Of a stretch of 64,000 bases of DNA, positions 31,277-64,000 are shown piece by piece. The notes beneath the pieces are model-generated. The model was not told the origin of the DNA. It searched no databases and was given only the letters and a program-made list of their open reading frames with translations. Source of the DNA: Dipteris shenzhenensis (taxonomy: Eukaryota); assembly GCA_047967505.1 (NCBI GenBank), contig CM106538.1, one strand, 5' to 3'. How positions within the stretch are numbered: the stretch's first letter is position 1; each line of letters starts with the position of its first letter. The translations under genes were made by a program, and so were the position numbers.

Positions 31277-31532
31277 TGTTGAGAGTTCACGCTCAACATC
31301 ATGTGATCATGTGTGCATAGCACCATCACGTGATCATATGTGCATAGCACTAACCTTATAGAGTGCTATAAAGGAAAGGGTTAGATCCCCTAACCTAACC
31401 CTAAAAGGGTTTGTATATATTCTATTTTTTCAACTAATTCTAGTGTACAGTTAGTCATTTGTGGTGTGCTCTCTAGCTGTGCCCTCTCTCCTCATCTCCA
31501 CTCTTCTCCTCTCCCCTCTTCATATTTTGTCA
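31277..31532 (+). repeat. 5' LTR (256 bp)
   Basis: TG...CA ends, TATA-like CTATAAAG, followed directly by the PBS. Confidence 0.97.
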
Positions 31533-33125: not shown

Positions 33126-33903
33126 GCACCATTTGCACTCCTTTTGCCCCTCCACCTAGATCAAGTCATATCTCTTGATCCAGGAAGAATTTGAGGGTGC
33201 TCCAAAAAGGAAAGTCGCTCGATTTTTTGTGCTCTATGCGCTCGTTACATCATGCGCACATTTCGGTGCAAGTTACACTCACATTTGAGCCTCGCCGACA
33301 AAACCACTTCCTTCATGCACATTTGCCTCTACATCGACGCATCTGACCCAGCACTTAAAAGGAACAAAGGAAAAGGAATTATTTGCTGCTCTTTCATCGA
33401 TCGACGGTTGGTTTAGATCTAGATCAGAGTAGACTAGATCGCCATAGAGGGGACGCTTTGAATTCCCCAAGTTGCCAATCTAAGCCATGCCCGAAATTCC
33501 CGACTAGTACCTACTCGGAGTCAGTCCATACGCTCACATCCGATTTCACATCATTACATTACCTGAAACCTTACGTTCATCAGTTCAGTGAGCAGACTTC
33601 AGAGTTCAGAGGCATTGCAGATTGATTCAGTGGGCAGATAGCACTTGATTTCACACACACATGCCACCATTGTAAAGCCTATTTGGCTATCTCACGGCAT
33701 CGTGCACATCATTTTTCAGCCTTGTAAAGCCTCTTGGCTATTCCCGGCATCATTGCCACAAGCCTTGTAACACAGGTCAGATCTTATTTACTGCAGTTCT
33801 ATCTTCACCGACGGTACAGAGATTTCACTTGGCATCTTCAGTGTATTTGCAGTTGATTCATACAGAGTTTTCCAGGACACTTTTTGAGTACATTGTTTGC
33901 ACC

Positions 33904-38151: not shown

Positions 38152-38239
38152 TGGAATGTAATGCTCAGTCCTTCTTCGATTCCCCAGAATCATCATCTTG
38201 AGGGAAGGCCTACTTCATGATGTTGATCTTGAGGGAAGG

Positions 38240-38496
38240 TGTTGAGAGTTCACGCTCAACATCATGTGATCATGTGTGCATAGCACCATCACGTGATCAT
38301 ATGTGCATAGCACTAACCTTATAGAGTGCTATAAAGGAAAGGGTTAGATCCCCTAACCCTAACCCTAAAAGGGTTTGTATATATTCTATTTTTTCAACTA
38401 ATTCTAGTGTACAGTTAGTCATTTGTGGTGTGCTCTCTAGCTGTGCCCTCTCTCCTCATCTCCACTCTTCTCCTCTCCCCTCTTCATATTTTGTCA
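38240..38496 (+). repeat. 3' LTR (257 bp)
   Basis: Preceded by the PPT and followed by TSD GGCAT. Confidence 0.97.
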
Positions 38497-40430
38497 GGCA
38501 TCCCATTCATAGCCTTCATGTAGCTATGATTGAGAATGTAAACTACCTTGTTACATGCTTCAGCTCAGAAAGTCTTTGGCAAATCTTTCCCTTTCATCAT
38601 ACTCCGGCCCATTTCGCAAATGATGCGGATCTTGCATTCTGCGACTCCATTTTGTTGTGATGTATGTAGCAAGGGTTTCTGCCTCTTGATCCCATGACTT
38701 TTGTAGTATCTTTTGAATTTAGATAATGTGAACTCTCCACCTCTGTCTGATCTCAATTTCTTCACCTTCCTCCATGATTCTTTCTCGACCATTACATGCC
38801 ATTCTTTGAACTTACTAAAAGCCTCATCTTTAGTCTTCTGGAAGTATATCCATATCCTTCTACTGTAGTCATCGATCAGCATCATGAAGTAGTAGGAACC
38901 ACCCAAAGCTTCCATCTCCATCTTTTTGCAGAGGTCCATGTGAACGAGCTCTAGAGGAGCCTTTGCCCTGCTGGCCTCTTTAGGAAAGGGCTGCCGATGC
39001 TACTTGCCCATCATGCAAGCTTCACATACATCGGGCAGATCTGAAATTTCTGCTAGGTCTGCAATCATTCCACTTTTATGCATCTCCTTCAAAGAACTAA
39101 GGTTTAGATGACCAAACCTCTCATGCCATAGCTTAATGTTCTTCACATCGGCTCGAGCACTAAAAACTGAGAGTTCATAGATGTTGTTGCGCCGTGTACC
39201 TTTACCAATGACCTTCCCTTGAAGATCCAAGATCTGTGCACCAGTCTTATCGAATTGAACTTTGAGGTCCCAATCCGTCCCAATCCGTGATTGCAAAAAT
39301 GGACAACAAGTTCCTCTTGATATTTGGCACATAAAGAACATCGGACAACTGTTTTACAACTCCATCTGACTTGAGAGCAATCGTACCTTTTCCTTTTGTT
39401 GGACATTTTGCATCATTGCCAACTGCTACCAGGATGTCATTCCCTACCGACTCTAGAGAGGTATACCAATCCTTCTGAGTAGTCATGTGGCGCAATGCAC
39501 CACTGTCAATGATCCAAGGTTCATCCGTAGGTAGATGAAGTACCTCCGTGAAAATCTCCTCAATTGCGACGAACAGCTCTATTGGTACTGCTTGCATGCT
39601 GTTGCTGGACTCTTTCTTCACTTGGTTCTTCTCATCTGCAATCTTCTTGTGGCACTCATTCTGCTTGTGCCCTACCTTGTTGCAATAGAAGCACTTGATC
39701 TTCTTCTTTCTCTTTTTATCATCAGAAGAAGATGGGTTACCAGAGTCCTTACCCTTACCTTTCTTTGATCCAGTCTAGAAAGCCGAATCTTCTCCAATCC
39801 TTGTCTTTTGACGCATCTCCTCCTCCAGAAGCATCGCACTGAAATCCTCAAAGTTGAGGGGCGGATTTCTGTTCTATGTATTCAGCGCCGTAACAAGACC
39901 ATCATACTTTGCTGGGAGAATCCATATGCACCTTTGTGCTAGATTCTTGCTAGTGATGGTGATGCTAATCGTAGTCATCTGATTACGCAGATTCTTCACC
40001 CTGGTGATGAACTTCTCTGTTGCTTCAGACTCAAACAATTTTTTGCTCGCGAGTTGAGTCTCCAGATTCTGAATACGCGTCTGATTCGTGGTCTCGTACT
40101 GATTTTTCAAGACCGTTTATGCCTCCTCCGCTTTGGTGACATGTTGAATTAACGCCATGATGGAATCACTTACACTGCAGACAATAGAACACAGTGCATC
40201 TGCATTTCTTCTTGTCCACGTGAGAATCTCATCTACAGTTGGTACTATCTGTTGTCCTACATTGGCTGGATCCGGGCAACCGGCCTCACGTCCACCCCAG
40301 TAGTAGTGTCCCAAAGCTCATACATGCTTAGGATGGTCTTCATCTTGAACTTCCAGAGTGGATAGTTAGAGCCGTCCAACTTTTTGCTTTCACCGAACAG
40401 TGGGATTCGCAGTCTTGCGGGGTGGGCCAT
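38497..40430 (-). pseudogene. copia gag, protease and integrase N-terminal part of the 28391-41224 element
   Basis: KLDGSNYPLWKFK, WIIDSGALRHM, LWHERFGHLN, CEACMMGK, LRSDRGGEF, QQNGVAE. Confidence 0.95.
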
Positions 40431-40500: not shown

Positions 40501-41224
40501 TGTAAGAAAACAATACAATGTCTGTGCTCAACAGATACCAGGATCTCGTACGCAAGAGAGAAAACCAGATAGTATGGAGAATAAAAAATTTGATTACTAT
40601 AGATCTGATACAATAGATGGCGTTGCCTCCCAACCGTGCACTCCTGTGAAAGAAGCTTCGATGGCGAGCTGGAAACAATAGAGGATGGAGGCTGGATGCT
40701 AAGGAATCAGGGTTGCTGTAGCCAGTGATGAAATGGGCTTCACGTGCTCACTCTTATATAGCCACTAGTCGTAGTCGATTGGACTCAATTGGGTGACCGA
40801 CCAAGTTTGCCCGCCAAAAAGGTTGATTGGGCGTCGGTCTCGAAATAGGCCACCAACCACATGATAGAACTATGGTGTAAAATAGACCATCTAACCTATA
40901 GTCTTCGTTTGGCCCATAGCCATCCGGGATCAACTAGGATTCCAAACAGGCCCTGCAACCCGAGAGTGGCTGCCCCAGGAAATGCTCTGTCTACCCTCAG
41001 CGCAGTTAGTCATGGGATGCCTTCCCGCACTTGCATGTAGCCTTGTTGGCAGTGTGCCAACTCCGTCCAGCCATCATGCCACACATGGCCCCCATCTGGT
41101 GTCCAAACCAAGACCTACCGGATAACTGAGCTACTCAAATGCCTTCTCCTCATATGGGGGGCTTACAAGTAGAGTTAGCTGGTTCCCGCGGAGTTACATG
41201 AGAGTGGAGCATTGATATCTAACA
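40501..41224 (-). repeat. 5' LTR (724 bp)
   Basis: Adjacent to the PBS; followed by TSD TGGAT. Confidence 0.95.
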
Positions 41225-44409: not shown

Positions 44410-46690
44410 ATTTTCTTTCACACTGTATATACCAAGGGATCCATTTGTAATAGATTTGGCCAACCCAAGTGGGTGTAGAACAAAATGTGAAAAATGGCCT
44501 CATAAATGATGGTATTGAGCTTGTCACAAGGCCACATGTTCATTGTATCATTGCTGCTAGACTAATACAACCATAAACAATCTATTTTCACACTTTTTGT
44601 ATCAAGAGAGCCTTTTCTTTAAAATTTCTCCAACTCAAGTAGGCGAAGGGCCCTAAGTCGACAAGGAATGTAAAAGTCACTCATACTTGATGGTGTCGAT
44701 CTTGTGGGAAGTCCAAGTTCCCATTTCTTGGATAAGTTATAACTCTATCATAAACACTCTTTTTGTACTTTGTGCATACCTTGGAGCCATTTTTCACTAA
44801 TTTGGCCAACCTTAGTTGGTAAAGGTCCTTAAGTCACAAAATGGGTAGAAAAGGCTCTCAAAATTGAGGGTATTGATCTTGTAGCAAGGATACGTGAGCA
44901 TCGAACCCCATATTTATTCTATCACAAATGGTATTTTCCCATACTTTCTATACCAAGGTCCCATTTTCGCTTATTTGGGCAATCAGATTGAGTATAGGGA
45001 TCAAGTTTGGAAATGAGTGCAAAAGGCCTTCATAGTAAATGGGATAGGGCTTGTGGAAATTCAAGTGATCATTGGATCTACCTTGATCTCCCCTTGATTG
45101 ATGAAACCCATTATTTGTGATCCTCATTTACACTTCATATACCAAGGGAGCCATTTTTCATAAAATTGGCCTTCTCAATGATTTGGAAAACCTAAGTGGG
45201 TACCGAGGGCTTGAGATAGGAAACAAATATGAAAGGAATTTTCAATTGGCAGGATTGAGATTGTGGAAAGATAAAATAAGGATTGTGTTTACTTCCTTGG
45301 GAAATTACACCATAAATAGTCAATTTTCACATTCAAGCTATATGAATGGAGCGACCATAAATAGTAGAATTTCACACTTTTTATACCAAGGGAGTCATTT
45401 TTTACTAATTTGTGTAACAGAAGTAGGTAAAGGCATTAAGGAAGGAATGAGAAAAAATATCTTTCAACATTTTCTCTACAAAGGATCCATTTGTAACAAG
45501 GCCACATGGGAATTGTATTCCTCTAAGTTTGCTTTCTTGGTTCCAACATGGATGTTTTTCACACTTTCTATACCAAGGGATCCAATTTTTATTGATTTAG
45601 TCAATGTGAATGGGTCAAGGTTCTTGAGTCCAGCAAAGAATACACAAAGCCTTGAGTCTAGCAAAGACTGCACAAGGCCCTTAAATTTTACGGTATGGAT
45701 GAGCATTGGGCTCTAACAAATTCCACCAGAAGGGCCATTTTTCACTTTGTCTGTGGCAAGGAATACTTTTTTGTTTATTGGGAGACATGTCTATAGCAAC
45801 AGAGATGTTTTTCACTAATTTGGCTAAGGCAAATGCATAAAATTCCTTGATGGGATAGAGCTTGTGGAAAGGGAAAGCGAGTTGGATCCCCCTTTCTTGA
45901 CTAATTCCACCATAGAATGGTGTTTTTTCAAACTTTTTATAATGGGAGCCATTTTCCATTATTTGGCCGACCAAGTGCGTAAACATCCTCAAGTCCATCA
46001 GAGTATCCATAAGGACATCTAAGTTTATGTTATTGAGATTGTGGTATGACCAAATGAGCATTAGATCAGTCTTGCTTGATTGATTCCACCATAAACTCTA
46101 TGATTCATACTTTCTATACTATGTTGGGATCCATTTCTCATTTGTTTGCTTAGGTAGAAACGGACTCAAGTTAGGCAAGATGTATGCAAGTTTCTAATAC
46201 TTGATTAGATGAACTTTTAACTAGAACATGGGAGAATTGGATCTCCATTGCTTTCCCATTCCTTCTTCTTACACTTTCTATATGAATGGAGCCTTTTTTG
46301 CCTAATTTGGCTAAAGTGAGTGTCTAAAGGGACTCAAGTTAGGAAATGAGTGAAAATTTCACTAAAAAATGGTATTGATATTGTGCACAGCCACTCGAGC
46401 ATTTGATTGGATTTGTTTGACTACTTCTATAACAAAAAGTCAATTTTCACACTTTTTACGCCAAGGGAGTCATTTTTTAAACTTTGATTGGATTTGTTTT
46501 CCTACTTCTGCAACAAATAACACCTTAATTGGATTTGTTTGACTATTTTTACAACAAGTGAGTACAAGCATTTGTGAGCACTACCTTCAAATTGGTTCTA
46601 TCAAAGGAAAACAATTGTAAAGATGATCGAATCATTAATTTGTAGCACCAATGATGGAAGCCCATGCATAGGAAAGTCCAAATTATGTGC

Positions 46691-46756
<66 letters not shown>

Positions 46757-47099
46757 AACCAAAATGGAAGGGGGTATTGATATTGTGCACAGCCACTCGA
46801 GCATTTGATTGGATTTGTTTGACTACTTCTATAACAAAAAGTCAATTTTCACACTTTTTACGCCAAGGGAGTCATTTTTTAAACTTTGATTGGATTTGTT
46901 TTCCTACTTCTACAACAAATAACACCTTACTTGGATTTGTTTGACTATTTCTACAACAAGTGAGTACAAGCTTTTGTGAGCACTACCTTCAAATTGGTTC
47001 TGTCAAAGGAAAACAATTGTAAAGATGATCGAATCATTAATTCGTAGCACCAATGATGGAAGCCCATGCATAGGAAAGTCCTTATGATGTGCAAATTTT

Positions 47100-47152
<53 letters not shown>

Positions 47153-47153
47153 T

Positions 47154-47200
<47 letters not shown>

Positions 47201-47620
47201 AACCAAAATGGAAGGGGGACACTTGGCAAGAAAGTGTGTGGGACACTTTTTAACAAAAGTGTAACTATAGCATTGCCTTGAAGGCAGTGCTAACAAACAA
47301 CCAATTTTCACCCTTTTTATACCAAGTGATTCATTCTTCAATGATTTGGCCAACTAGATGGGTAAATGGCCTTGAACAAGGAAATGAGTGGCAAGACATC
47401 ATAACTGATGCTGAGCCATATTTCATTGATTTGGAAAAACCAAGTCTGTTGAGGGACTAGACCAATGAAATAAGTTTTTAAGGTCTTCCTTCTTGATGGG
47501 TTTGATATTGTAGAAAGGCAACATGATCATTATATTCCCCTTCTCCATCATTGATTTAATTTTTTCACCATAAATTACATTTTTCCACACTTTCTATAGC
47601 ACATGACCCATTTCATGGAA
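44410..47620. repeat. Highly degenerate satellite-like array, period roughly 165-190 bp
   Basis: Recurrent TTTTCACACTTT(C/T)TATACCAAGGGAGCCATTTT near 44415, 44585, 44765, 44935, 45130, 45370, 45555, 45740, 45925, 46105, 46270, 46445, 47305 and 47580. Confidence 0.75.
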
Positions 47621-49910
47621 CATTACCCCATGCTATCAAAAGAAAGTATGTGTGATTACGTATGACTGAATCTTTATTAAGCAATGGGTTTATGATTTAT
47701 CCAAATTTCACATGTTGAGTTAAAGAGTTGCTAACAAGGGTTATATTCATGTGCACTTCTAGTCATACACATGTAGCCCTAGTTATAACATAAGGTATTA
47801 GAGCACAAAGGATATTGTGCCTATGTTTGTATTTTAACTCTTCTATTGAGTTGTAGACGATGCTGGGAGATAGGTGGCCGAGATGGCGTGAGAAGAAGCA
47901 AACTTTTTTTCTTCTCCCACATTGTGGGAAGGGGTTGGCATCAATGGGGTTAGAGGATTTGTAACTTGGGTCTTCTAGGAGAAGTTTATTCTCTTCCTAC
48001 TTTCCCCTCGCTCTCCTATTTGCCCATTTGATTTATGGGTAGCCTTTCCAAGGGACACTTGAGTAAGAAGACCCTTCGATTCTTTGATTCTGACTTTGAC
48101 CTGGATTGACATAGATGATTTTTCTCAACTTCAACCATTGTGTATTGCATATGGCCATAGAGCCTTACTTTGATCAAATTGTCGTGTCTAGTGAAGACCC
48201 CCACATCTTTTGTGGCTTTGTACATTGCATCAAGCCACAAGCCTCAAGTCGCCTCAAGTAGCTTAACTACTTCTTGCTCCATAACGTTCCTGCCTATAGT
48301 TCTAGGCTGTACCGCCCTTTTCAAGTCATAAGCCTTGATGATTAGAAGGTTATCTCTATTTTCTATAGCTTTTTCTTTCCCTTGTCGTGAGTAACATGCA
48401 TCATAGCTTCTTCATTCCACAAAGCCATGTGCAAATACATTTGCGAAAGACACAATTCTAAGATCTACTCCTTAGTGAGTGAATCTATTTTATTTTTTCC
48501 CATTCGAGATGGATTACTCCATGTCCTTAAATGCTGGATCAGAATGGTTTTAAATGCATAAGTTCCATCAAGGCTACACTTTTTATAAGCTCATGTAGTT
48601 TTGGCAAAAGTAACGACATCCATCCTTAAAGCATGAGTGCAATGTCTTCATAGAAAGGACAAATGGAGCATAGAAACAACAAAGTATTCATTAGAAGACC
48701 AAAATTCATAAGCCTTAGATAACATGGAGCATATATGATCAACAATTCCATTTGATTTGATTTTGGATAGGTCATTTGAACCTACTCAAGAATAGCTTCA
48801 ATTTTGATTCAAATCACTACTTAAATTGGGTATAATAGTGAGTTGAACCTGAAACATGTTGTGGAGGTAGCTCTATTGGGTCATTGTTTCCTTGGGTGTA
48901 GCCTTTTTTGATGAGGTTCATGGACTTTTTTGTATATAGGTATCTTGCATGACCCATAACTTATGCTTTGCTCAATGGAATTCAGCAAACTTTGTCTTCA
49001 AGTTGTAATACACATTCCAAACATGAACATGAAAGCAAAAAATTATGTAATAAGGATTTGGAACAAGACCGTAAAAGAATTACAAGTGCTATGTTTCATG
49101 TGAAGCATGCATCCTGAAGACTATAGGATATAATAATTTATTCAAAAACCTCAAAATTTTGTTCTATAGATACATACAACCAAGTAATCATTCAAAAGTA
49201 CACTACGTGAGCTTCTCCTCAACCCAAGGATGCACCTAAATGAGATCATTATGGATGGGTTAATGGGGCCTCCAATGTTGTGCTAAAGTGATGCATAGCC
49301 ATTTGAGGGCATGCTCCATAACTTTTTTTTGATTTGTTGAAAACCAAAACGGATTGAAAACTTGGAATCCAAACTATTGGGACAAGTGCATGGTGGTCTT
49401 AAAACGTTGATAGTTGATGGTATTGGTGTCTAGATTCACCGTAAAATGGAAGAAGCTGGAAAGTGCAATTTGTGCATGTGCAAATATATTTTAATAAATC
49501 CAACACTATTTACAATTTTGAATTGTTTCTTTTTCCATGCACTTACTTGCTATATGGCTCATAAGCATGCCAAAGGTCATTGCATTTAGTAATACACAAC
49601 ATCAAACACGATGGTGTGCCCTTTGGCCTATTTGTGTTTTGAAGCATTTTAGGGCACATTGCACTTCTTTGGGATATCGAAGTCTGCTGACATGTATCAC
49701 CAGAGGGGGAAAAACGAACGGCTTAAATTTTGCTACCCCCGTGAATTTTGAATTTTCACACCTCCCACCCATCGAATCTTGGAAGATTAAGTACCTGCAA
49801 CTTGCCCCTGCCCTGAAATGCCCTACAACCCACATGCACCTCAACATGACCTTGCATAGACTTTGGTTTGCCATTGTCTTCTTTCGGGTGAGTTGTCTTC
49901 TAATCTTTGA

Positions 49911-50180
49911 TTGCCTTACCAAATAGCTTCTTCGAGTCTAATCAGGAATGTGGATCTTACCTTTACTAAAAGGCCAAAAGTGATTTGTCAATGCAGAGTA
50001 CAATATAGTTCAGAGCATAAGAAAAGGAGAGGTAGCCTAAGTGCAGAAGTCATTGCTATAGTGATGACGTTTTGGCATAAAAATACGAGAGTTTCTCCAA
50101 ATAGAAAAGACATCTATAAGAAGCGGACGAGATGCAAGGTGTTTGAGGAGCACATCATACACATGCTAAATATAATGCAG
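49911..50180 (+). pseudogene. Possible degraded DNA-transposase-associated exon; second copy at about 58155-58425
   Basis: FWHKNTRVSPNRKDIYKKR...EEHIIHMLNIMQ followed by a GTTAGT donor-like site; resemblance to transposase N-terminal regions is from memory only. Confidence 0.3.
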
Positions 50181-50269
50181 GTTAGTGGTGCATAGACTAG
50201 CTCGGTGCTTGTTTGTGATTGCGCTTTGGGATAGTTTACTTGTTTCAATTCTTAAACTAGGCTTGGACT

Positions 50270-50915
50270 AAATGCGATTGTCCTAAACCAGCCTAGTGGC
50301 TGGAACATCATGAACTGTAGGCTGGTTCAGCTCAATTGCTAGCTATGTGATTGTCCTAAACTAGCGCATGTGGTTGAACATACATTAGTTGTTATTCAGC
50401 CTGGTGGCATGGTCGAGCAAAAATTAATAGCAATATATTTCATAATATATTGTTATTTTACTAAACCAGCCCGGTGATTGGAACATCATGCAACTGTGGC
50501 TGCTTTGGCTCAATCACTAGTTATGTGATTGTCTTGAATGAGCATGGTTGAATAGACATTACTTATTGACCAGCTCTATGGTTGTAATTATTGTATTTCT
50601 TAGTACCTAAATTCATTAAATTTAATTTCCTACTATTCGAGTCATATACCATTGCTAAATTGTGAAATTCAGAAATGAAAAGCAATATATTGTTATTTTC
50701 TAATGGTGAAATTCAAAAATGAAAAGCAATATACTTGTTATTGTCTAATATGTGAAGTTGACTCTGTTAGGCTAAACTATCCCAGTGGTTGAAACGATGA
50801 TAGTGTCCTAAACCATCCCGGTGGTTGAAATTGTGAGTGACTGCTGTCCTAAACGTGTCCTAAACCAGACCGGTGATTGAAATTATGACTCTCCTAAACC
50901 AGCGCAGTGGTTGAA
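50270..50915. repeat. Degenerate short repeats TGTCCTAAACCAGCCCGGTGGTTGAA; also at about 58495-59155
   Basis: Many imperfect copies at irregular spacing. Confidence 0.75.
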
Positions 50916-52400
50916 ATTCGTTTTGCTTCATTATATACTTTAATTAGACTGTGTTTTGTATTCTTTTAGTAGTAGCAAAAAGGGGGCTCATTGTTCTGTT
51001 GTTCCTGCATGTTGGGTCAACAGACTGAATTGTATCTCAAGTTTATGGATCGGAATCCGAACATTTGAGAATTAATTCATGATGGTGGTCGCTCTCATTA
51101 GCCACGTTTGTCGTGGCTAAGATTCCACCCGGCTGGCAGTCAATTACTAGCCACCGAAGTGCCACCACATGGCATCTTCTTCATGATTACTAGCCCCCCG
51201 TCTGGGGTGGTGCCTAAGATTCCACCACGGTGGCTTGCAATTAATATGGATGGAACCCCAGCAAGCTCCAGCCACCACAGTGGCTCAAAATTTATAATAT
51301 ATATAAGATCTGTGGCATTTGGCATTTTACTATGTTGCTCTGATCCCGCCCATGATCTACTACTTTGCTCCACACACTCTGCTACTTTGCTCCACACCCC
51401 TCCTCAAGATCTTTTCTGCCTCTGCTCTACTTTGCTCCATGCTCCCTCCTCCAACTCTCATCACTCATCTGCTCCCCTACTCACCCACTCATCTTCAACA
51501 TGCCTACTACCACCCCCCCTTGATGCTCTGTGATCCCAATGTTATCTGCCTTCTCATATAAGGTGATTGTGTTGCACTCACCTGGAGTAGGAATGCTAGC
51601 ACTAGTGGAGACCCTTCGTTCCCACAGTCGATTCCCCACACATCTACATGTCACCACCTTAGATGACATGCTCATAGAGGGCCTCTTTATGGATGTGCTA
51701 TATGGGTTCCCCCTAGATGTCCACGAAGGCCTTAGTATTTTCAGAGCAGAGTACTCTAGACTTGTTGGGGGAGCCATAATCCGAGTCCTAGCAATGTGCA
51801 TGGTCTTTGCCCTCTCCATCATATCCTCCTTTGGCTCCCTAAAACAAGCTAAACTAGTGGAAAACTGAGTCGTACAAATTCCCTCTTGCTTAGATGAGGC
51901 TCTCAACAATGGCTGGATGTAATCTTTTGGGTTCTCAACGATCTTTTGGCTCACTGGATGTAAGGTTGTGGTCTCTAAGGCATTCATGTAATCTCTTTTT
52001 GTTCAATTTGAGGCTCTCAGTATGCACACTTGTTAACTTTTATATTCTGAATGGTTATGGCTACTACCTGTAATCTTTTAGCCTTTAAGGCTCTCAGCAA
52101 TTGCTGAGTTTTTATAAATGTAAGATCCTCTGTTCAATTTTTACTCAATATAAGTTGATAATTTTTATATAACCTGTTATTGGATGTAGATGTACATTGT
52201 AATCTCTTTTGCTTTCGAGAACTTGTACTTTTGCCCTCATTTATATTTATTGCAACAAGGACTAAAATACCAGGAAAGATGGACTACAATTTCCTTGGTT
52301 TATGACAAAATAGCGCTAAAATAACTCCAACGATCCCACCATTGTGGTTGCATGGAGATATACCTAGAAAAATACAATTAAACTTTCAAAAATTGCAATT

Positions 52401-54385: not shown

Positions 54386-55346
54386 TATTGGGAGACATGT
54401 CTATAGCAACAGAGATGTTTTTCACTAATTTGGCTAAGGCAAATGCATAAAGTTCCTTGATGGGATAGAGCTTGTGGAAAGGGAAAGCGAGTTGGATCCC
54501 CCTTTCTAGACTAATTCCACCATAGAATGGTGTTTTTTCAAACTTTTTATAATGGGAGCCATTTTCCATTGATTTGGCTGACCAAGTGCGTAAACATCCT
54601 CAAGTCCATCAGAGTATCCTCAAGTGGGTATTCATCATCAAGTCCATCAGAGTATCCATAAGGACGTCTAAGTTTATGTTATTGAGATTGTGGAATGACC
54701 AAATGAGCATTAGATCAGTCTTGCTTGATTGATTCCACCATAAACTCTATGATTCATACTTTCTATACTATGTTGGGATCCATTTCTCATTTGTTTGCTT
54801 AGGTAGAAACGGACTCAAGTTAGGCAAGATGTATGCAAGTTTCTAATACTTGATTAGATGAACTTTTAACTAGAACATGGGAGAATTGGATCTCCATTGC
54901 TTTCCCATTCCTTCTTCTTACACTTTCTATATGAATGGAGCCTTTTTTGCCTAATTTGGCTAAAGTGAGTGTCTAAAGGGACTCAAGTTAGGAAATGAGT
55001 GAAAATTTCACTAAAAAATGGTATTGATATTGTGCACAGCCACTCGAGCATTTGATTGGATTTGTTTGACTACTTCTATAACAAAAAGTCAATTTTCACA
55101 CTTTTTACGCCAAGGGAGTCATTTTTTAAACTTTGATTGGATTTGTTTTCCTACTTCTACAACAAATAACACCTTACTTGGATTTGTTTGACTATTTCTA
55201 CAACAAGTGAGTACAAGCTTTTGTGAGCACTACCTTCAAATTGGTTCTGTCAAAGGAAAACAATTGTAAAGATGATCGAATCATTAATTCGTAGCACCAA
55301 TGATGGAAGCCCATGCATAGGAAAGTCCTTATGATGTGCAAATTCT

Positions 55347-55429
<83 letters not shown>

Positions 55430-58400
55430 AACCAAAATGGAAGGGGGACACTTGGCAAGAAAGTGTGTGGGACACTTTTTAACAAAAGTGTAACTATAGC
55501 ATTGCCTTGAAGGCAGTGCTAACAAACAACCAATTTTCACCCTTTTTATACCAAGTGATTCATTCTTCAATGATTTGGCCAACTAGATGGGTAAATGGCC
55601 TTGAACAAGGAAATGACTGGCAAGAGATCATAACTGATGTTGAGCCATATTTCATTGATTTGGAAAAACCAAGTCTATTGAGGGACTAGACCAATGAAAT
55701 AAGTTTTTAAGGTCCTCCTTCTTGATGGGTTTGATATTGTAGAAAGGCAACATGATCATTATATTCCCCTTCTCCATCATTGATTTAATTTTTTCACTAT
55801 AAATTACATTTTTCCACACTTTCTATAGCACCTGACCCATTTCATGGAACATTACCCCATGCTATCAAAAGAAAGTATGTGTGATTACGTATGACTGATT
55901 GTTTATTAAGCAATGGGTTTATGATTTATTCAAATTTCACATGTTGAGTTAAAGAGTTGCTAACAAGGGTTATATTCATGTGCACTTCTAGTCATACACC
56001 TGTAGCCCTAGTTATAACATAAGGTATTAGAGCACAAAGGATATTGTGCATATGTCTGTATTCTAACTCTTCTATTGAGTTGCAGACGATGCTGGGAGAT
56101 AGGTGGCCGAGATGGCATGAGAAGAAGCAAACTTTTTTTCTTCTCCCACATTGTGTGAAGGGGTTGGCATCAATGGGGTTAGAGGATTTGTAACTTGGGT
56201 CTTCTAGGAGAAGTTTATTCTCTTCCTACTTTCCCCTCGCTCTCCTATTTGCCCATTTGATTTATGGGTAGCCTTTCCAAGGGACACTTGAGTAAGAAGA
56301 CCCTTCGATCCTTTGATTCTGACTTTGACCTGGATTGACGTAGATGATTTTTCTCAACTTCAACCATTGTGTATTGCATATGGCCATAGAGCCTTACTTT
56401 GATCGAATTGTCATGTCTAGTGAAGACCCCCACATCTTTTGTGGCTTTGTACATTGCATCAAGCCACAAGCCTCAAGTTGCCTCAAGTAGCATAACTACT
56501 TCTTGCTCCATAACATTCCTGCCTAAAGTTCTAGGCTGTACCGCCCTTTTCAAGTCATAAGCCTTGATGATTAGAAGGTTATCTCTATTTTCTATAGCTT
56601 TGTCTTTCCCTTGTCGTGAGTAACATGCATCATAGCTTCTTCATTCCACAAAGCCATGTGCAAATACATTTGCTAAAGACACAATTCTAAGATCTACTCC
56701 TTAGTAAGTGAATCTATTTTATTTTTTCCCATTCGAGATGGATTACTCCATGTCCTTAAATGCTGGATCAGAATGGTTTTGAATGCATAAGTTCCATCAA
56801 GGCTGCACTTTTTATAAGCTCATGTAGTTTTGGCAAAAGTAACGACATCCATCCTTAAAGCATGAGTGCAATGTCTTCATAGAAAGGACAAATGGAGCAT
56901 AGAATCAACAAAGTCTTCATTAGAAGACCAAAATTCATAAGCCTTAGATAACATGGAGCATATATGATCACACAATTCCATTTGATTTGATTTTGGATAG
57001 GTCATTTGAACCTACTCAAGAATAGCATCAATTTTGATTCAAATTACTACTTAAATTGGGACATGAGCTCATCTACAATAGTGAGTTGAACCTAAAACAT
57101 GTTGTGGAGGTTTCTCTATTGGGTCATTGTTTCCCTGGGTGTAGCCTTTTTTGGTGAGGTTCATGGAATTTTCTGTATATAGGTATCTTGCATGACCCGT
57201 AACTTATGCTTTGCTCAACGGAATTCAGCAAACTTTGTCTTCAAGTTGTAATACACATTTCAAACTTGAACATGAAAGAAAAAAATTATGTAATAAGGAT
57301 TTGAAACAAGACCGTAAAATAATTACAAGTGCTATGTTTCATGTGAAGCATGCATCCTGAAGACTATAGGATATAACAATTTATTCAAAGACATCAAAAT
57401 TTTATTCTATAGATACATGCAACCAAGTAATCATTCAAAAGTACACTACGTGAGCTTCTCCTCAACCCAAGGATGCACCTAAATGAGATCATTATGGATG
57501 GGTTAATGGGGCCTCCAATGTTGTGCTAAAGTGATGCATACCCATTTGAGGGCATGCTCCATAACTTTTTTTTGATTTGTTGAAAACCAAAACGGATTGA
57601 AAACTTGGAATCCAAGCTATTGGGACAAGTGCATGGTGGTCTTAAAACGTTGATAGTTGATGGTATTGGTATCTAGATTCACCCTAAAATGGAAGAAGTT
57701 GGAAAGTGCAATTTGTGCATGTGCAAATATATTTTAATAAATCCAACACTATTTACAATTTTGAATTCTTTCTTTTCCCATGCACTTACTTGCTATATGG
57801 CTCATAAGCATGCCAAAGGTCATTGCATTTAATAATACACAACATCAAACCCGATGGTGTGCCCTTTGGCCTATTTGTGTTTTGAAGCATTTTAGGGCAC
57901 ATTGCACTTGTTTGTGATATCCAAGTCTGCTAACGTGTATCACCGGAGGGGGAAAAACCAACAGCTTAAATTTTGCTACCCCCATGAATTTTGAATTTTC
58001 ACACCTCCCACCCATCAAATCTTGGAAGATTAAGTACCTGCAACCTGCCCCTGCCCTGCAAATGCCCTACAACCCACACGCACCTCAACATGACCTTGCA
58101 AAGACTTTGGTTTGCCATTGTCTTCTTTCGGGTAAGTTGTCTTCTAATCTTTAATTGCCTTACCAGATAGCTTCTCCAAGTCTAATCAAGAATGTGGATC
58201 TTACCTTTACTAAAAGGCCAAAAGTGATTTGTCAATGCAGAGTACAATATAGTTCAGAGCGCAAGAAAAGGAGAGGCAGCCTAAGTGCAGAAGTCATTGC
58301 TACAGTGATGACGTTTTGGCATAAAAATATGAGAGTTTCTCCAAATAGAAAGGACATCTGTAAGAAGCAGACGGGATGAAAGGTGTTTGAGGAGCACATC

Positions 58401-59565
58401 ATACACATGCTAAATATAACGCAGGTTAGTGGTACCTAAACTAGCCTGGTGGTTGTTTGTGATTGAGCTTTGGGATAGCTTACTTGTTTCATTTCTTAAA
58501 CTAGGCTTGGACTAAATGTGATTGTCTTAGACCAGAATAGTGGTTGGATCATCATGCAACCATAGGCTGGTTCAGCTCAATTGCTAGCTATGTGATTGTC
58601 CTGAACCAGTGCATGTGGTTGAACATCCATTAGTTGTTATTCAGCCCGGTGGCATGGTCGAGCAAAAATTAATAGTAATATATTTCATAATATATTGTTA
58701 TTTTACTAAACCAGCCCGGTGATTGGAACATCATGCAACCGTGGCTGCTTTGGCTCAATCACCAGTTATGTGATTGTCCTGAATGAGCATGGTTGAACAA
58801 ACATTACTTATTAACCAGCTGCGTGGTTGAAATTATTGTATTTCTTAGTACCTAAATTCATTAAATTTAATTTCCTACTATTCGGGTCACATACCACTGC
58901 TAAATTGTGAAATTCAGAAATGAAAAGCAATATATTGTTATTTTCCAATGGTGAAATTCAAAAATGAAAAGCAATATACTTGTTATTGTCTAATATGTGA
59001 AGTTGAGTCCGTCAGGCTAAACCATCCCAGTGGTTGAAACTATGATAGTGTCCTAAACCATCCCGGTGGTTGAAATTGTGAGTGACTATTGTCGTAAACA
59101 TGTCCTAAACCAGACCGGTGATTGAAATTGTGACTCTCCTAAACCAGCGTGGTGGCTCGGGGGGTCACTATGTATAAACCCTCTATATCACATGCGTTCA
59201 AGTCCTATATTTAAAGTCCCTTATCTGTAAAAAATTTCATTAATAAAATGTACCCCTTTTCTATACAAATCTGTAAATTTTTTCCAAAACTATTTTAAAT
59301 AGTCCCTTATGTATATTTATTTCTATAAATTTTAGAAATTAAAAAAATCCTTCTGTTAAACTCACGTGATAGGGTTACATACGATGAGTGACCCCCCCAA
59401 GCGTGGTGGTTGAAATTTGTTTTGCTTCATTATATACTTTAATTAGACTGTGTTTTGTGTTCTTTTAGTAGTAGCAAAAAGGGGGCTCATTGTTCTATTG
59501 TTCCTGCATGTTGGGTCAACAGAATGAATTGTATCTCAAGTTTATGGATCGGAATCCGAACATTT
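54386..59565 (+). repeat. Segmental repeat copy 2 (~5.2 kb)
   Basis: Colinear with 45776-51066; lacks the internal duplication, carries a MITE; microsatellite at about 55326-55425. Confidence 0.95.
59156..59401. mobile_element. 246-bp MITE with 8-bp TSD CGTGGTGG (hAT- or P-type TSD length)
   Basis: TIRs CTCGGGGGGTCACT... / ...AGTGACCCCCCCAAG; AT-rich interior; empty site in copy 1 at about 50900 (ACCAGCGCAGTGGTTGAAATT). Confidence 0.88.
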
Positions 59566-59579
59566 CAATTGGGCAGAGG

Positions 59580-61787
59580 TGTTGAGAGTTCATGCTCAAC
59601 ATCATGTGATCATGTGTGCATAGCACCATCACGTGATCATATGTGTATAGCACTAACCTTATAGAGTGCTATAAAGGAAAGGGTTAGATCCCCTAACCCT
59701 AACCCTAAAAGGGTTTGTATATATTCTATTTTTTGAACTAAATCTAGTGTACAGTTAGTCATTTGTGGTGTGCTCTCTAGCTGTGCCCTCTCTCCTCATC
59801 TCCACTCTTCTCCTCTTCCCTCTTCATATTTTGTCATGGTATCAGAGCTCCCTTGCCTTTCGCTGAGGCATTGCCAATCTCGAGAGAGTGAGAGAGATTG
59901 TGAGATTGAGTGTTCTTTCACTTCCGTTGAGAGATAGAGAAATTTCCATCCATTTGAGAGGAATTTCCGTCCATGAGAGATTGAGAGATTTCCGTTAATC
60001 TCATTCCATTCTATTCATTCCTTCTTTAAGAGTTTCTATTCATTGGAGAGAGAAAGAGGGAGCGAGATTTCAGTTGAGAGAGATTCACTCTGAGAGATTG
60101 TGTGAAAGAGAGAGAGGTTTTGAGATATCTGTGAGAAAGAGTTCTTAGACTCCCTCAATGACTGCATACCTGAGGTGCATTAGCCCCTGCGTGCTCGCCA
60201 AGTCTACAAGGCTCCGACCTTGACTACATGCCCACAACAAATAAGGCTCTCTATGCATAGCCTTCTCAGCGAGGGCTCATCCACGACGGCCTGCTTCTCC
60301 AAGCTTTGACCCGCCGGGCTCACGGGCTCACGGGCAATGCTTCAAAACTGCCCATGCAAGCCACCTCTCCAAAGCTTCTACAAAGCTTCCAACAAACAGG
60401 CCTACTTCCAACAAATGGCTCCTATAGCAGAAGCCTTGGACGTCTCCAATCGGCAGTGCGGCTCTACATCGGCTCTCATCGACTCGACAACCTTCTACAC
60501 GGCCTTCTCTAGGCAACGCCAAGCTTCTAGCTCAGCAACTCTGTAAGCCGCGCAGTGCCTAGCTCCATATAGCCTGTATTCCTTATATCCCCTGTTACTC
60601 ACTACGTCACCAACCGTCTTGTTGGTAATAATGAACGCAAAGATGGTGAAGAAGAAGAGCAAGACGATGAGCGGCATGAGTCACAATTGAAGCACAACTC
60701 CATGGAATTGGTCTTGTCAAGCTCAACCAACTCGACATACTTTGCCACGGGATTCCCTTGAGCCCTGCATCGTCAACAGCCACGCTTTGGCCCAAAGTAA
60801 GGGCCCGCTCTTGGCAACGCCTCTCCTGACGGCCCTTCCCGATAGCTTGCGGGATCCCATACCCTCTGATGCCATCGATACCCTGCGCCATTCGACCTCT
60901 CAGCCTCTACAACGACTAAGAGAATTTGCATCTGCAAGGCGCCATCTCCATCGTTCAGTCCATCGCCTCCGTCGACCAAGATACCTGCATCTCTTCTTTG
61001 AGAGAGAAATTGCCACGTGGCAGATAAGGCCACATGGCACTCTTCAATCCCATCACCCACCTTAGGGCAAGGTAACCCGGGGTAGAGTAACCTTGGTAAA
61101 AAATGGATAAGGATGGTTAAGTGAACCCCTAGTCAAGTTAAGCCAAGGCTGGGCTACTCAGAGAAGGGTGGTCAAAAATCAGCCACGTGGCACTTATCCA
61201 TGGCACTTATCCACTTGCCATGTTATCCATCTTATCATCAATCTTATCATGCCACATCATCAACCTTATCATGCCACATCATGAAGGCAATCCTTATCTA
61301 CCACATCACCCTTGCCAGCTCAGTAGGCCACGTCACCTGTGCCACGTCAGCACAAACACGTCATCATCGACTACCACATCATCATCGATTGCCACATCAC
61401 CTATGCCACATTAGTAGTTCATGTCATCACTACACATCAGCATTGCCATGTCATTTGCTGACATCATCATCTATGCCACCTCACTAGTGCCACCTAAGTA
61501 GTCCAATCAACACTGACCTCTGTAGGCACTCACAGTGCTCCACAGTCACTTCATGTGACCACTTCTGCCACCTCAGCACAAGCTCCACTGGCACACCTCT
61601 TGCTAGGCATAGTGCCACATCATCATTGCATGTGACTCATAGTGACACATCATCATTGAGCACCATTTGCACTCCTTTTGCCCCTCCACCTAGATCAAGT
61701 CATATCTCTTGATCCAGGAAGAATTTGAGGGCGCACCAAAAAGGAAAGTCGCTCGTTTTTTTGTGCTCTACGTGCTCATCACATCAT
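59580..61787 (+). mobile_element. Truncated sister of the 31277-38496 copia: 5' LTR, PBS and leader only
   Basis: LTR 59580-59836 differs from 38240-38496 at about five positions; PBS TGGTATCAGAGC 59837-59848; GCCACGTCA array; block 61565-61787 matches 33030-33253, then breaks off. Confidence 0.95.
60570..60700 (-). pseudogene. Two captured fragments of a plant tetraspanin coding sequence, antisense to the retrotransposon
   Basis: 60671-60570 = LIVLLFFFTIFAFIITNKTVGDVVSNRGYKEYRL (TM3 and start of the large loop; family pattern FAFVVTNKG.G.....GYKEY.L). 60700-60671 = ELCFNCDSCR (family pattern LC(Y/F).C.SCK), in a different frame. Confidence 0.85.
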
Positions 61788-64000
61788 TGATTTGGAAAAA
61801 CCAAGTCTATTGAGGGACTAGACCAATGAAATAAGTTTTTAAGGTCCTCTTTCTTGATGGGTTTGATATTGTAGAAAGGCAACATGATCATTATATTCCC
61901 CTCTACATCATTGATTTAATTTTTTCACCATAAATTACATTTTTCCACACTTTCTATAGCACATGACCCATTTCATGGAACATTACCCCATGCTATCAAA
62001 AGAAAGTATGTGTGATTACATATGACTAAATGTACTATCTTGCTGCTCTGATGTATCTCAAGACTCTTTTGGCTGCATTCCAATGAGACTATTTTGGATA
62101 ACATAAGGTATTAGAGCACAAAGGATATTGTGCCTATGTTTGTATTCTATCTCTTCTATTGAGTTGCAGACGATGCTAGGAGATAGGTGGCCAAGATGGC
62201 ATGAGAAGAAGCAAACTTTTTTTCTTGTCCCATATTGTGGGAAGGGGTTGGCATCAATGGGGTTAGAGGATTTGTAACTTGGGTCTTCTAGGAGAAGTTT
62301 ATTCTCTTCCTACTTTCCCCTCGCTCTGCTATTTGCCCATTTGATTTATGGATAGCCTGTCCAAGGGACACTGAGTAAGAAGACCCTTCGATCCTTTGAT
62401 TCTGCCTTTGACCTGGATTGACGTAGATGATTTTTCTCAACTTCAACCATTGTGTATTGCATATGGCCATAGAGCCTTGCTTTGATCAAATTGTCATGTC
62501 TAGTGAAGACCCCCACATCTTTTGTGGCTTTGTACATTGCATCAAGCCACAAGCCTCAAGTCGCCTCAAGTAGCATAACTACTTCTTGCTCCATAACGTT
62601 CCTGCCTATAGTTCTAGGCTGTACCGCCCTTTTCAAGTCATAAGCCTTGATGATTAGAAGGTTATCTATACTTTCTATAGCTTTGTCTTTCCCTTTTCGT
62701 GAGTAACATGCATCATAGCTTCTTCATTCCACAAAGCCATGTGCAAATACATTTGCTAAAGACACAATTCTAAGATCTACTCCTTAGTGAGTGAATCTAT
62801 TTTATTTTTTCCCATTCGAGATGGATTACTCCATGTCCTTAAATGCTAGATGAGAATGGTTTTAAATGCATAAGTTCCATCAAGGCTGCACTTTTTATAA
62901 GCTCATGTAGTTTTGGCAAAAGTAACAACATCCATCCTTAAAGCATGAGTGCAATGTCTTCATAGAAAGGACAAATGGAGCATAGAAACAACAAAGTCTT
63001 CATTAGAAGACCAAAATTCATAAGCCTTAGATAACATGGAGCATATATGATCACACAATTCCATTTGATTTGATTTTGGATAGGTCATTTGAACCTACTC
63101 AAGAATAGCATCAATTTTGATTCAAATTACTACTTAAATTGGGACATGAGCTCATCTACAATAGTGAGTTGAACTTTAAACATGTTGTGGAGGTAGCTCT
63201 ATCGGGTCATTGTTTCCTTGGGTGTAGCCTTTTTTGGTGATGTTCATGGACTTTTCTGTATATAGGTATCTTGCATGACCCATAACTTATGCTTTGCTCA
63301 ACGAAATTCAGCAAACTTTGTCTTCAAGTTGTAATACACAAACATGAAAGCAAAAAATTATGTAATAAGGATTTGGAACAAGTGCTATGTTTCATGTGAA
63401 GCATGCATCCTGAAGACCATAGGATATAACAATTTATTCAAAAACATCAAAATTTTATTCTATAGATACATGCAACCCAATAATCATTCAAAAGTACACT
63501 ATGTGAGCTTCTCCTCAACCCAAGGATGCACCTAAATGAGATCATTATGGATGGGTTAATGGGGCCTCCAATGTTGTGCTAAAGTGATGCATACCCATTT
63601 GAGGGCGTGCTCCATAACTTTTTTTTGATTTGTTGAAAACCAAAACGGATTGAAAACTTGGAATCCAAACTATTGGGACAAGTGCATGGTGGTCTTAAAA
63701 CGTTGATAGTTGATGGTATTGGTATCTAGATTCACCCTAAAATGGAAGAAGTTGGAAAGTGCAATTTGTGCATGTGCAAATATATTTTAATAAATCCAAC
63801 ACTATTTACAATTTTGAATTGTTTCTTTTTCCATGCACTTACTTGCTATATGGCTCATAAGCATGCCAAAGGTCATTGCAATTAATAATACACAACATCA
63901 AACCCGATCGTGTGCCCTTTGGCCTATTTGTGTTTTGAAGCATTTTAGGGCACATTGCACTTGTTTGGGATATCCAAGTCTGCTGACGTGTATCACCGGA
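61784..64000 (+). repeat. Segmental repeat copy 3 (partial; runs off the right edge)
   Basis: TCATTGATTTGGAAAAACCAAGTC... colinear with 47423 onward and 55652 onward. Confidence 0.95.
62046..62098 (-). other. ~53-bp filler derived from copia RT of the 31277-38496 family
   Basis: CTCTGATGTATCTCAAGACTCTTTTGGCTGCATTCCAATGAGACTATTTTGGA is the reverse complement of about 37560-37612 with two mismatches; absent from copies 1 and 2. Confidence 0.9.

Follow-up and report, generated by a model that had tools for sequence, protein, structure and literature searches.

A long modular 5′ leader with an unalignable C-rich interior in two copies of a Ty1/copia retrotransposon from Dipteris shenzhenensis

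In this study, we analysed a stretch of 64 000 nt from Dipteris shenzhenensis (assembly GCA_047967505.1, contig CM106538.1; hereafter, the window), which contains two copies of a Ty1/copia family that appears to be young and whose modular 5′ untranslated leader, at 2.36 kb in copy 1, is unusually long. As the original prediction had it, conserved flanks in this leader enclose a stretch that is wholly different between two copies with near-identical LTRs. With a probability of roughly one half, we interpret this stretch as an unconstrained part of the leader that lies between conserved cis-acting signals, is remodelled by reverse transcriptase and took up sequence from one gene incidentally, the result being a tolerated by-product.

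Results

Structure of the two copies

Copy 1 (31277–38496), a Ty1/copia element, is intact and very young. It has direct LTRs with TG..CA ends, a primer-binding site (PBS), a polypurine tract and, on both sides, a 5 bp target-site duplication, GGCAT (31272–31276 and 38497–38501), and one 1 bp indel is the sole difference within its LTR pair. The domains of gag-pol follow the copia order of gag, protease, integrase and reverse transcriptase, with Retrotran_gag_2 in gag, and Pol_BBD, rve and RVT_2 at pol residues 192–271, 387–482 and 719–962, respectively. The gag-pol region contains two in-frame stops (ends at 34527 and 37548), and the best relatives in the databases are merely 40–45% identical. 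The PBS, TGGTATCAGAGC, is presumably complementary to initiator tRNA-Met. The features of copy 1 are as follows.

31277–31532, + strand: 5′ LTR, 256 nt, TG..CA
31533–31612, + strand: PBS TGGTATCAGAGC (31533–31544) and conserved first ~70 nt of the leader
31613–31905, + strand: GA/TTCCGT short-repeat leader, aligning only loosely with copy 2
31906–32620, + strand: C-rich, CpG-rich middle, GC 0.57, CpG observed/expected (o/e) 1.10, skew −0.22; the final ~60 nt are again of leader type
32621–33029, + strand: array of ~26 CTGCCACGTCATCA units
33030–33253, + strand: conserved 224 nt block with a hairpin at its centre
33254–33903, + strand: rest of the leader; the gag ATG follows at 33904
33904–38151, + strand: gag-pol in copia order (gag, Pol_BBD, pre-integrase, rve, SH3, RVT_2)
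38231–38239, + strand: polypurine tract GAGGGAAGG, directly before the 3′ LTR
38240–38496, + strand: 3′ LTR, 257 nt

Copy 2 (59580–61787) is an older 5′ fragment, which ends at 61784–61787 where a 3 nt microhomology, CAT, joins it to an unrelated 8 kb repeat. Its features are as follows.

59580–59836, + strand: 5′ LTR, 257 nt, five substitutions from the LTRs of copy 1
59837–59916, + strand: PBS and conserved beginning of the leader; past 59916, contigs from other sequencing runs diverge
59917–60150, + strand: GA/TTCCGT short-repeat leader
60151–60990, + strand: C-rich middle; the next 20 nt (60991–61010) are GA-type leader
61011–61190, + strand: ~170 nt segment without counterpart in copy 1, with GCCACGTGGCA at both borders, a direct repeat that brackets 61026–61177
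61191–61564, + strand: decayed array, mostly CCACATCA, CpG o/e 0.32
61565–61787, + strand: conserved block

Identity mosaic between the two copies

The full-length reading of the leaders rests on these two copies, in which identity rises and falls module by module. The near-identity of the LTRs was confirmed, with five substitutions separating the copy 2 LTR (59580–59836) from those of copy 1 (31277–31532 and 38240–38496) and an LTR identity between copies of 95–97%, as was the common PBS, TGGTATCAGAGC being present in both. Identity over 31277–31612 and 59580–59916 is 95.3%. The GA-rich leader is indeed common to both copies; near-identity does not extend past its first ~70–80 nt, and 31540–31818 and 59844–60114 are 68% identical. 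The predicted CCACGTCA array was found in both copies. In copy 1, it has a period of 12–14 nt, and the reverse complement of its unit CTGCCACGTCATCA is an ACGT-core box (TGACGTGGC); in copy 2, it has decayed to CCACATCA. The two arrays share 65–73% identity. Downstream of the arrays, the block described as near-identical proved to be 94.2% identical over 224 nt (33030–33253 and 61565–61787).

The middles cannot be aligned, in agreement with the original prediction. The Smith–Waterman score between them was 13, compared with a shuffle mean of 13.0±1.6 (110 of 200 shuffles reached 13), and alignment of one middle with the reverse strand of the other gave a score of 12 against 11.5 (89 of 200 shuffles reached 12). 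Both zones that align loosely, the GA/TTCCGT zone and the ACGT-box array, are built of short tandem repeats with monomers that vary between copies. The C-rich middles contain local duplications of 8–29 nt only and are not tandem arrays; slippage alone therefore cannot have made them, which counts against the view that we favour.

Coding signal and database searches

The middles had been thought to be patchworks of coding-type sequence. Outside the tetraspanin pieces described below, this was not borne out, as neither 3-base periodicity nor a protein match was detected. The codon periodicity of the copy 1 middle (P3 0.16) was exceeded by 96% of 1000 shuffles, and the z values of 150 nt windows across the middles ranged from −1.4 to +1.4. 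The controls were positive: none of 1000 shuffles reached the value of gag or of the tetraspanin pieces, and 0.8% reached that of pol. Among 10 ORFs searched against Pfam, none gave a match below E 0.1 (best, a chance match to RecO_N_2 at E 0.19), at a length for which Pfam is insensitive, PF00335 having missed even the true tetraspanin ORF. With phmmer against PDB, the best E was 0.13 for all six stop-read-through frames of the copy 1 middle and 0.18 for a pair of long ORFs from the minus strand of copy 2. One of the six frames of the copy 1 middle, a minus frame, was also compared by phmmer with 1.84 billion proteins and yielded a single match (E 3.7e-4). This match, SP-RING-like in pattern (C..C...CF..W.C), 31% identical and running through three stop codons, was treated as chance. 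No match was obtained for the 99 aa ORF at 60607–60906 (− strand) in a word-indexed search of 5.8 billion proteins.

Rfam returned sub-threshold chance matches to C/D boxes in the arrays and nothing else. An origin of the middles from an rDNA spacer or a satellite was rejected, there being no Rfam rRNA match and no tandem structure. Within the element, both strands of the LTR, the GA leader, the block, the remaining leader and gag-pol were compared with the middles, and only the GA-type tail of the copy 2 middle was matched, and a blastn search of the rest of the window (word size 7, E<1e-3) gave no match. The lack of similarity to other parts of the element leaves a self-derived origin of the middles without support, a point against the view that we favour. 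Exact-pattern scans were run for the LTR/PBS junction (metagenome and viral contigs) and for the block hairpin (metagenome and genome contigs), and neither returned a locus.

Tetraspanin pieces in copy 2

The presence of host-gene sequence in one of the middles was verified. Within the copy 2 middle, a search of 5.8 billion proteins matched tetraspanin-8 proteins at E 8.6e-10, and the match resolves into two pieces of ~99 and 46 nt, overlapping by 1 nt and derived from one tetraspanin-8-like host gene.

60574–60672, − strand: tetraspanin piece 1, antisense to the element, encoding LIVLLFFFTIFAFIITNKTVGDVVSNRGYKEYR
60672–60717, − strand: tetraspanin piece 2, antisense to the element, encoding KTNSMELCFNCDSC, a C-terminal loop motif

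The peptide LIVLLFFFTIFAFIITNKTVGDVVSNRGYKEYR extends from TM3 into the beginning of the large loop, and the coding match of piece 1 may reach 60570. The order of the pieces is permuted: read along the minus strand, piece 2 precedes piece 1, but in the gene its source lies further 3′. A contig from a public sequencing run of a related organism (run X3) carries both pieces in their natural order and continues on both sides unlike the element; by hand translation of the loose ends, both continuations read on as tetraspanin. Three differences were listed between the patch and this contig, all of them transitions at which the element has A or T. The patch also differs from its surroundings in composition, with a GC content of 0.44 and a skew of +0.02, compared with 0.54–0.58 and −0.25 to −0.37. 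Host-derived sequence thus lies inside copy 2, the property by which gene-fragment capture is recognized. Such fine-grained capture, two sub-100 nt pieces of one gene in antisense and permuted order, constrains its timing in reverse transcription or repair.

Composition and short words of the middles

The middles are rich in GC and CpG, as had been predicted, with a GC content of 0.54–0.57 and a CpG o/e of 0.69–1.10, compared with 0.42 and 0.44 for the window. Elsewhere, the CpG o/e is 0.37 in gag-pol, 0.10–0.19 in the LTRs and 0.33 in the block. The GC and CpG content of the middles thus exceeds that of every resident module, which speaks against the view that we favour: a recent origin outside the element, from a source not depleted of CpG, would explain it no less well than an origin within the element. 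An excess of C over G characterizes the middles (skew −0.22 to −0.28), the arrays (−0.35 and −0.47) and the blocks (−0.25) alike. In windows of 60 nt, the skew was negative in 11 of 12 for the copy 1 middle and 13 of 15 for the copy 2 middle, the two exceptions in copy 2 being the tetraspanin window and the GA-type tail.

The two middles also have a strand-specific vocabulary in common. On the same strand they share 72 7-mers, compared with 52.8±9.3 (7 of 200 shuffles reached 72), and on opposite strands 30, which is at the expectation of 31.4. Enriched words common to both are TCCATCG (four occurrences, 0.09 expected), CTTCTAC (four, 0.14 expected) and AAGCTTC. Punctuation by short motifs had been predicted and was found: CCAAGCYTC has five matches in the window, compared with 1.12 expected, three of them within the middles, and is strand-specific. 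A 13 nt word, AAGCTCCATCGAC, occurs with up to one mismatch at 31925, 32161 and 32544, these three sites in the copy 1 middle being all of its matches in the window. The two segments that the three words separate show no relationship (score 13, compared with 10.4±1.4; 18 of 200 shuffles reached 13), which gives the words the look of punctuation and not of decayed repeats and is a further point against the view that we favour. Words of this type bracket and divide the copy 1 middle, and degenerate forms flank the tetraspanin patch of copy 2, where AGCTCCA and AGCTCAA form short direct repeats on either side.

These properties bear on the alternative that each middle is wholly foreign, that is, a functionless mosaic of non-coding host RNA pieces (e.g. 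5′ UTRs) assembled by repeated template switching, of which tetraspanin is the only part that a protein search can recognize. The CpG o/e of the middles, set against 0.10–0.37 in the LTR, block and gag-pol of the same lineage, is what such an origin predicts; the sense strand of plant 5′ UTRs is rich in C, and UTR pieces as short as the two proven captures would escape the searches used. The short direct repeats that flank inserts (AGCTCCA/AGCTCAA and GCCACGTGGCA), together with the threefold occurrence of AAGCTCCATCGAC in copy 1, point the same way. However, GC content and strand skew are uniform over nearly all 60 nt windows of both middles, the sole proven foreign piece is compositionally unlike the remainder, and Pfam, PDB, Rfam and the large protein libraries, the latter queried with one frame of the copy 1 middle and one ORF of copy 2, gave no credible match. 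The uniform composition, resident-type strand bias and common strand-specific words argue against a patchwork of host mRNA, since fragments collected independently are unlikely to share composition, C over G bias and vocabulary. We therefore consider a wholly foreign origin unlikely, while giving it some weight.

Contigs of related organisms

We found 10 public sequencing runs, none of which had a word share above 0.08, and compared contigs of four of them (X1, X3, X4 and X5) with copy 2 alone; contig depth gives no copy number. No RNA run was among the 10, a result with no bearing on expression. Each of the four runs has contigs that agree with copy 2 over the LTR and PBS as far as ~59916 and again over the block (61488–61787). 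The loose ends past 59916 and before 61547/61582 consist of letters unlike copy 2, and the X1 variant past 59916 is unlike copy 1 too. Joins that span the interior were observed in X4 (59910 to 61681 and 59916 to 61320) and in X3 (60456 to 61582), and an X3 contig spans 61053–61281. The contigs thus show that the interior varies among relatives as well. Between 59922 and 61487, copy 2 is mostly without cover in X1, X4 and X5 and patchily covered in X3, and uncovered parts were not counted as evidence. For this reason, a copy-specific insertion of ~350 nt, suggested by gaps in X3 at 60531–60573 and 60792–60878, was rejected, absent cover not being admissible.

Loose ends past 61786 go on like copy 1, indicating that the CAT junction of copy 2 arose by illegitimate repair. 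This event recommends a second alternative, in which the tetraspanin patch is filler DNA from the repair of a chromosome break in one dead copy after its integration. Filler DNA at plant double-strand breaks consists of short patchwork inserts from several templates, with microhomologies of 1–3 nt, and multi-template filler in plant end joining yields short, permuted, antisense and slightly overlapping pieces, as seen in the patch with its 1 nt overlap. The three transitions to A or T relative to the X3 contig are, moreover, what decay in place predicts. However, jumps of reverse transcriptase produce the same signature. Filler would be a one-off event in one copy and not a property of the family. 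On balance, we regard this account of the patch as rather improbable.

Discussion

In the interpretation that we favour, the modules conserved between the copies, namely, the LTR, the PBS, the first ~70–80 nt of the leader and the 224 nt hairpin-containing block, would be conserved because they are cis-acting replication signals, serving priming, strand transfer and probably packaging or dimerization. The interior, with its GA/TTCCGT repeats, C-rich and CpG-rich non-coding spacer and array of ACGT-core boxes, would be little constrained. Each replication cycle may then remodel this interior through slippage of reverse transcriptase in the repeats and illegitimate strand transfers between co-packaged RNAs, with the consequence that lineages only 2% apart in their LTRs would have loosely similar repeat zones and an unalignable spacer. 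The two pieces of a tetraspanin-8-like transcript would have entered the lineage of copy 2, in antisense and permuted order, through jumps of this kind or through subsequent repair. The 'cassette' would therefore be a tolerated by-product of remodelling with incidental capture, and no device for collecting host sequences. If this ordinary reading is correct, the family offers a worked example of a non-coding interior that diverges far while the LTRs stay 95–97% alike, and a caution for LTR-based family definitions and insertion dating.

The distribution of AAGCTCCATCGAC-type words would take on a different meaning if the word were a sequence-defined entry site, at which reverse transcriptase repeatedly leaves and re-enters the template, splicing in other RNA preferentially in antisense, so that active copies would produce RNA complementary to host messages such as that of tetraspanin-8. 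We consider this very unlikely; if true, it would represent a retrotransposon with built-in acquisition of antisense host sequence, in which the epigenetic-conflict hypothesis outlined below could be tested directly.

The original proposal of a specialized hypervariable slot, in which fragments of host mRNA accumulate to camouflage the element or to give rise to small RNAs against the host, is very unlikely to be correct: the middles do occupy the identical position in both copies with leader-type sequence on either side, they contain recurring words, including one of 13 nt three times in copy 1, and the antisense pieces would make the sense transcript of the element complementary to a host mRNA, but instead of many independent host pieces a single host gene was demonstrable, in one of the two copies and that one dead and truncated, the remainder of the middles lacks coding signal and is uniform in composition, long inverted repeats that might act as hairpin precursors of small RNAs were not found, and a simpler published mechanism suffices (PMC13317346, PMC7004042). 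The searches run here revealed no host match apart from the tetraspanin pieces, an outcome that forms one half of the scenario named in the original prediction as refuting it, the other half being two fixed subfamily haplotypes.

Comparison with known systems

Hypervariable retrotransposon UTRs, gene-fragment capture and epigenetic conflict have all been published already. For plant LTR retrotransposons, hypervariable UTRs are explained by illegitimate recombination or by abnormal strand transfer between co-packaged RNAs in PMC7004042, which cites Macas et al. 2009 on such regions in the 3′ UTR of Tat/Ogre elements. As in Tat/Ogre, the stretch studied here is non-coding, varies in sequence and length between copies and contains short tandem repeats. 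Tat elements, however, belong to Ty3/gypsy and vary in the 3′ UTR, whereas the present family is Ty1/copia and varies in the 5′ leader; in addition, the most variable part of this leader, the C-rich middle, is no tandem array, and one copy carries pieces of a host gene.

With respect to these pieces, template switching to an unrelated co-packaged RNA is a published route of capture (PMC13317346), and in a survey of gymnosperms, at least two captured fragments were present in 13.68% of host TEs on average, a minority (PMC13477047). Our case resembles gene-fragment capture by LTR retrotransposons in having host coding sequence between LTRs, and differs in that the pieces are only 46 and ~99 nt long, come from a single gene and lie antisense and permuted in the leader. 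Maize Bs1 is reportedly a named example of such capture by an LTR retrotransposon. Finally, under 'epigenetic conflict' (Muyle et al., bioRxiv 10.1101/777037), siRNAs that target a TE with a captured piece of a gene may act on that gene as well, and silencing of the TE may be tempered as a result. This is the same idea as the proposal of camouflage or small RNAs for the leader examined here, put forward in that source for capture in general and for maize.

Structure and surroundings of copies 1 and 2

The window is plant-like and rich in transposable elements (GC 0.42, no N), and self-comparison detected the 257-bp LTR three times. Two of these LTRs belong to copy 1, a nested insertion in an older copia element of the opposite strand, and the third opens copy 2.

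Features of the two copies and their surroundings
31277-31532 and 38240-38496: LTRs of copy 1, enclosing a 7.2-kb element
28391-29115 and 40501-41224, minus strand: LTRs of the older copia element (725 bp, 88.9% alike)
30822-31247 and 38565-39774, minus strand: ORFs of the older element, its integrase frame split by copy 1
59580-59836: LTR of copy 2
45776-51066, 54386-59565 and 61784-64000: ~8-kb repeat units, copy 2 lying between the second and third

The sole difference between the copy 1 LTRs was one 1-bp indel, and a 5-bp target-site repeat, GGCAT, was found on both sides of the element. The PBS was TGGTATCAGAGC and the polypurine tract GAGGGAAGG. The domain order (gag, Pol_BBD, pre-integrase, rve, SH3, RVT_2) was of copia type, the reading frames were interrupted by two in-frame stops, and the closest database relatives showed merely 40-45% identity. 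As gag starts at 33904, the leader measures 2359 nt. Every LTR contained 2.7 units of a plant telomere-type CCCTAAA repeat (CCCTAACCCTAACCCTAAA; 31389-31408, 38351-38371 and 59691-59709).

Copy 2 breaks off at 61784-61787, at a CAT microhomology junction to the unrelated ~8-kb repeat. Contigs of other sequencing runs proceed past this point exactly like copy 1, indicating that copy 2 is a truncated 5' fragment. The window contains three units of this repeat (~8.2-8.6 kb, no recognisable protein domains) at 95-98% identity, the third beginning at the position equivalent to 47423. Elsewhere we observed CACTA-type transposase remnants at 21852-24316 on the minus strand (Pfam Transposase_21/tnp2, E 5.9e-38; DUF4218, E 1.8e-23) and, at 3016-3539, a long trinucleotide-type low-complexity tract giving poly-Thr/poly-Ala or Tyr/Cys runs in two frames.

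Comparison of the two leaders

Identity between copies 1 and 2, from the LTR inwards
LTR, PBS and first ~70 nt of the leader: 95%
GA/TTCCGT short-repeat zone: 68%, numerous indels
Middles (31906-32620 and 60151-60990): no alignable sequence
ACGT-box array: 65-73%
224-nt block (33030-33253 and 61565-61787): 94.2%

Much of the original prediction was reproduced by measurement. Five substitutions were counted between the LTRs of the two copies, which had been judged about five apart, and the middles were indeed unalignable: their local score of 13 equalled that of dinucleotide shuffles (13.0 +/- 1.6; 110 of 200 reached 13), and the reverse-strand score of 12 (11.5 in shuffles) was reached by 89 of 200. 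The middles were also GC- and CpG-rich as described (GC 0.54-0.57, CpG o/e 0.69-1.10), compared with CpG o/e values of 0.44 for the window, 0.37 for gag-pol, 0.33 for the block and 0.10-0.19 for the LTRs. The short words proposed to punctuate them were enriched, on the plus strand only. All three window matches to the strongest, AAGCTCCATCGAC, with at most one mismatch, lay in the copy 1 middle (31925, 32161 and 32544), and the stretches separating them bore no relation to one another.

The array (32651-33044 in copy 1, 61191-61564 in copy 2) lies in the transcribed leader, with ~26 tandem CTGCCACGTCATCA units in copy 1; the reverse complement of this unit, TGACGTGGC, is presumably a bZIP site of the G-box/C-box type. 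The array reads CCACATCA in copy 2 versus CCACGTCA in copy 1, and most cores of copy 2 have decayed to CACATCA (CpG o/e 0.32 versus 0.78). Together with the differences from the contigs of other runs, where copy 2 mostly shows T in place of C or A in place of G, this decay indicates that copy 2 is the older, deaminated copy. A ~152-nt segment of copy 2 (61008-61195), missing from copy 1, carried GCCACGTGGCA at both borders; a contig of run X3 crosses its right junction, showing that it also occurs in other copies. Within the block, the same central hairpin (AGATCAAG...CTTGATC in a longer stem) was predicted in both copies (33140-33210 and 61675-61745; folding z = -2.15 and -2.68), with no covariation support because the sequence there is invariant.

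Relatives in other sequencing runs

Pattern scans of three collections gave no further family copies. Copy 2 was compared with contigs of four public runs of differently labelled organisms. The LTR, PBS and first ~70 nt were matched by contigs in all four runs, as was the block. Contigs depart from copy 2 at 59916 as well as ahead of 61547 and 61582, at least one variant, in run X1, resembles neither copy in the window, and some contigs bridge the interior and join both flanks. These contigs, which do not give the number of middle kinds, support the description of conserved flanks and a variable interior for the family.

Tetraspanin pieces in copy 2

The host-gene piece reported in one middle was confirmed: a minus-strand ORF at 60495-60680 matched tetraspanin-8 proteins (E = 8.6e-10 in a search of 5.8 billion proteins), true homology covering 34 residues (LIVLLF...GYKEYRL). 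Directly adjoining this piece, in a different minus frame, is KTNSMELCFNCDSC, the conserved LCFNCxSC motif, located ~130 residues further along tetraspanin. A single X3 contig spans both pieces (60672-60717 and 60574-60672) in reversed order relative to the element ('goes back 144'), diverges from it at both inner ends, and translates on as tetraspanin on both sides by hand translation, indicating that the element holds two pieces of one host gene. Measuring ~99 and 46 nt, the two run antisense to the element in permuted order, with an overlap of 1 nt; transitions accounted for all three listed differences from the contig.

Seen on the plus strand, such an arrangement would be produced by a polymerase copying the mRNA, upstream piece first, followed by a jump to a downstream piece. 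Either a change to an RNA template in the course of plus-strand synthesis or filler synthesis from several templates during the repair of a break would fit it equally well. A separate alternative, limited to the tetraspanin patch, is that it is repair filler laid in after insertion; in our estimate this is rather improbable.

Origin of the remaining middles

The middles had been described as patchworks of coding-type sequence, which did not hold outside the patch. A strong three-base periodicity characterised gag, pol and both tetraspanin pieces but was absent from the copy 1 middle and from either side of the patch in copy 2, both in wholes and in 150-nt windows. Pfam matched none of 10 ORFs, a weak test that also missed the true tetraspanin ORF. 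Against PDB sequences, none of the six read-through frames of the copy 1 middle scored below E 0.13 and two long copy 2 ORFs had no match; the 99-aa ORF adjoining the patch had no protein match, and Rfam gave nothing in the middles. For one frame of the copy 1 middle, a search of 1.84 billion proteins returned a sole match (E 3.7e-4; 32180-32380, minus strand; SP-RING/MIZ-like, 31% identity), which is borderline, extends over three stop codons and probably arose by chance.

Composition is the more telling evidence. GC and C>G skew were even window by window in both middles, the skew being common to the adjacent array and block, and the proven foreign piece was distinct (GC 0.44, skew +0.02). 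The middles had 72 same-strand 7-mers in common, compared with 52.8 in shuffles (7 of 200 reached 72), and no excess on the opposite strand. Outside the patch, no sign of host origin was found.

Interpretation and comparison with known systems

By their appearance, the leader flanks may act as cis-acting signals, and the interior would be free to change. We favour, at a probability of about 0.5, a copia element whose 5' leader is hypervariable at its centre and has made one small capture, a variant on kinds already known. Three features of the middles speak against an intrinsic origin, namely CpG above every resident module, no tandem structure, and no resemblance to the rest of the element. 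The main alternative is that the middles are a wholly foreign non-coding mosaic. Uniform composition and skew with common same-strand words are unexpected for independent host fragments in arbitrary orientation, and we regard this alternative as unlikely. The flank and interior pattern of the original prediction stands, but its dedicated slot found little support and appears highly improbable.

For the hypervariable centre with one capture, precedents are available. PMC7004042 describes hypervariable UTR regions in plant LTR retrotransposons and attributes them to abnormal strand transfer among copies packaged together; PMC13317346 presents unrelated co-packaged RNA as a capture route; and Copia captures, at times of several fragments, are reported in PMC13477047 as common in large plant genomes. 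The proposed camouflage or anti-host small-RNA role corresponds to the 'epigenetic conflict' hypothesis, as outlined in bioRxiv 10.1101/777037.
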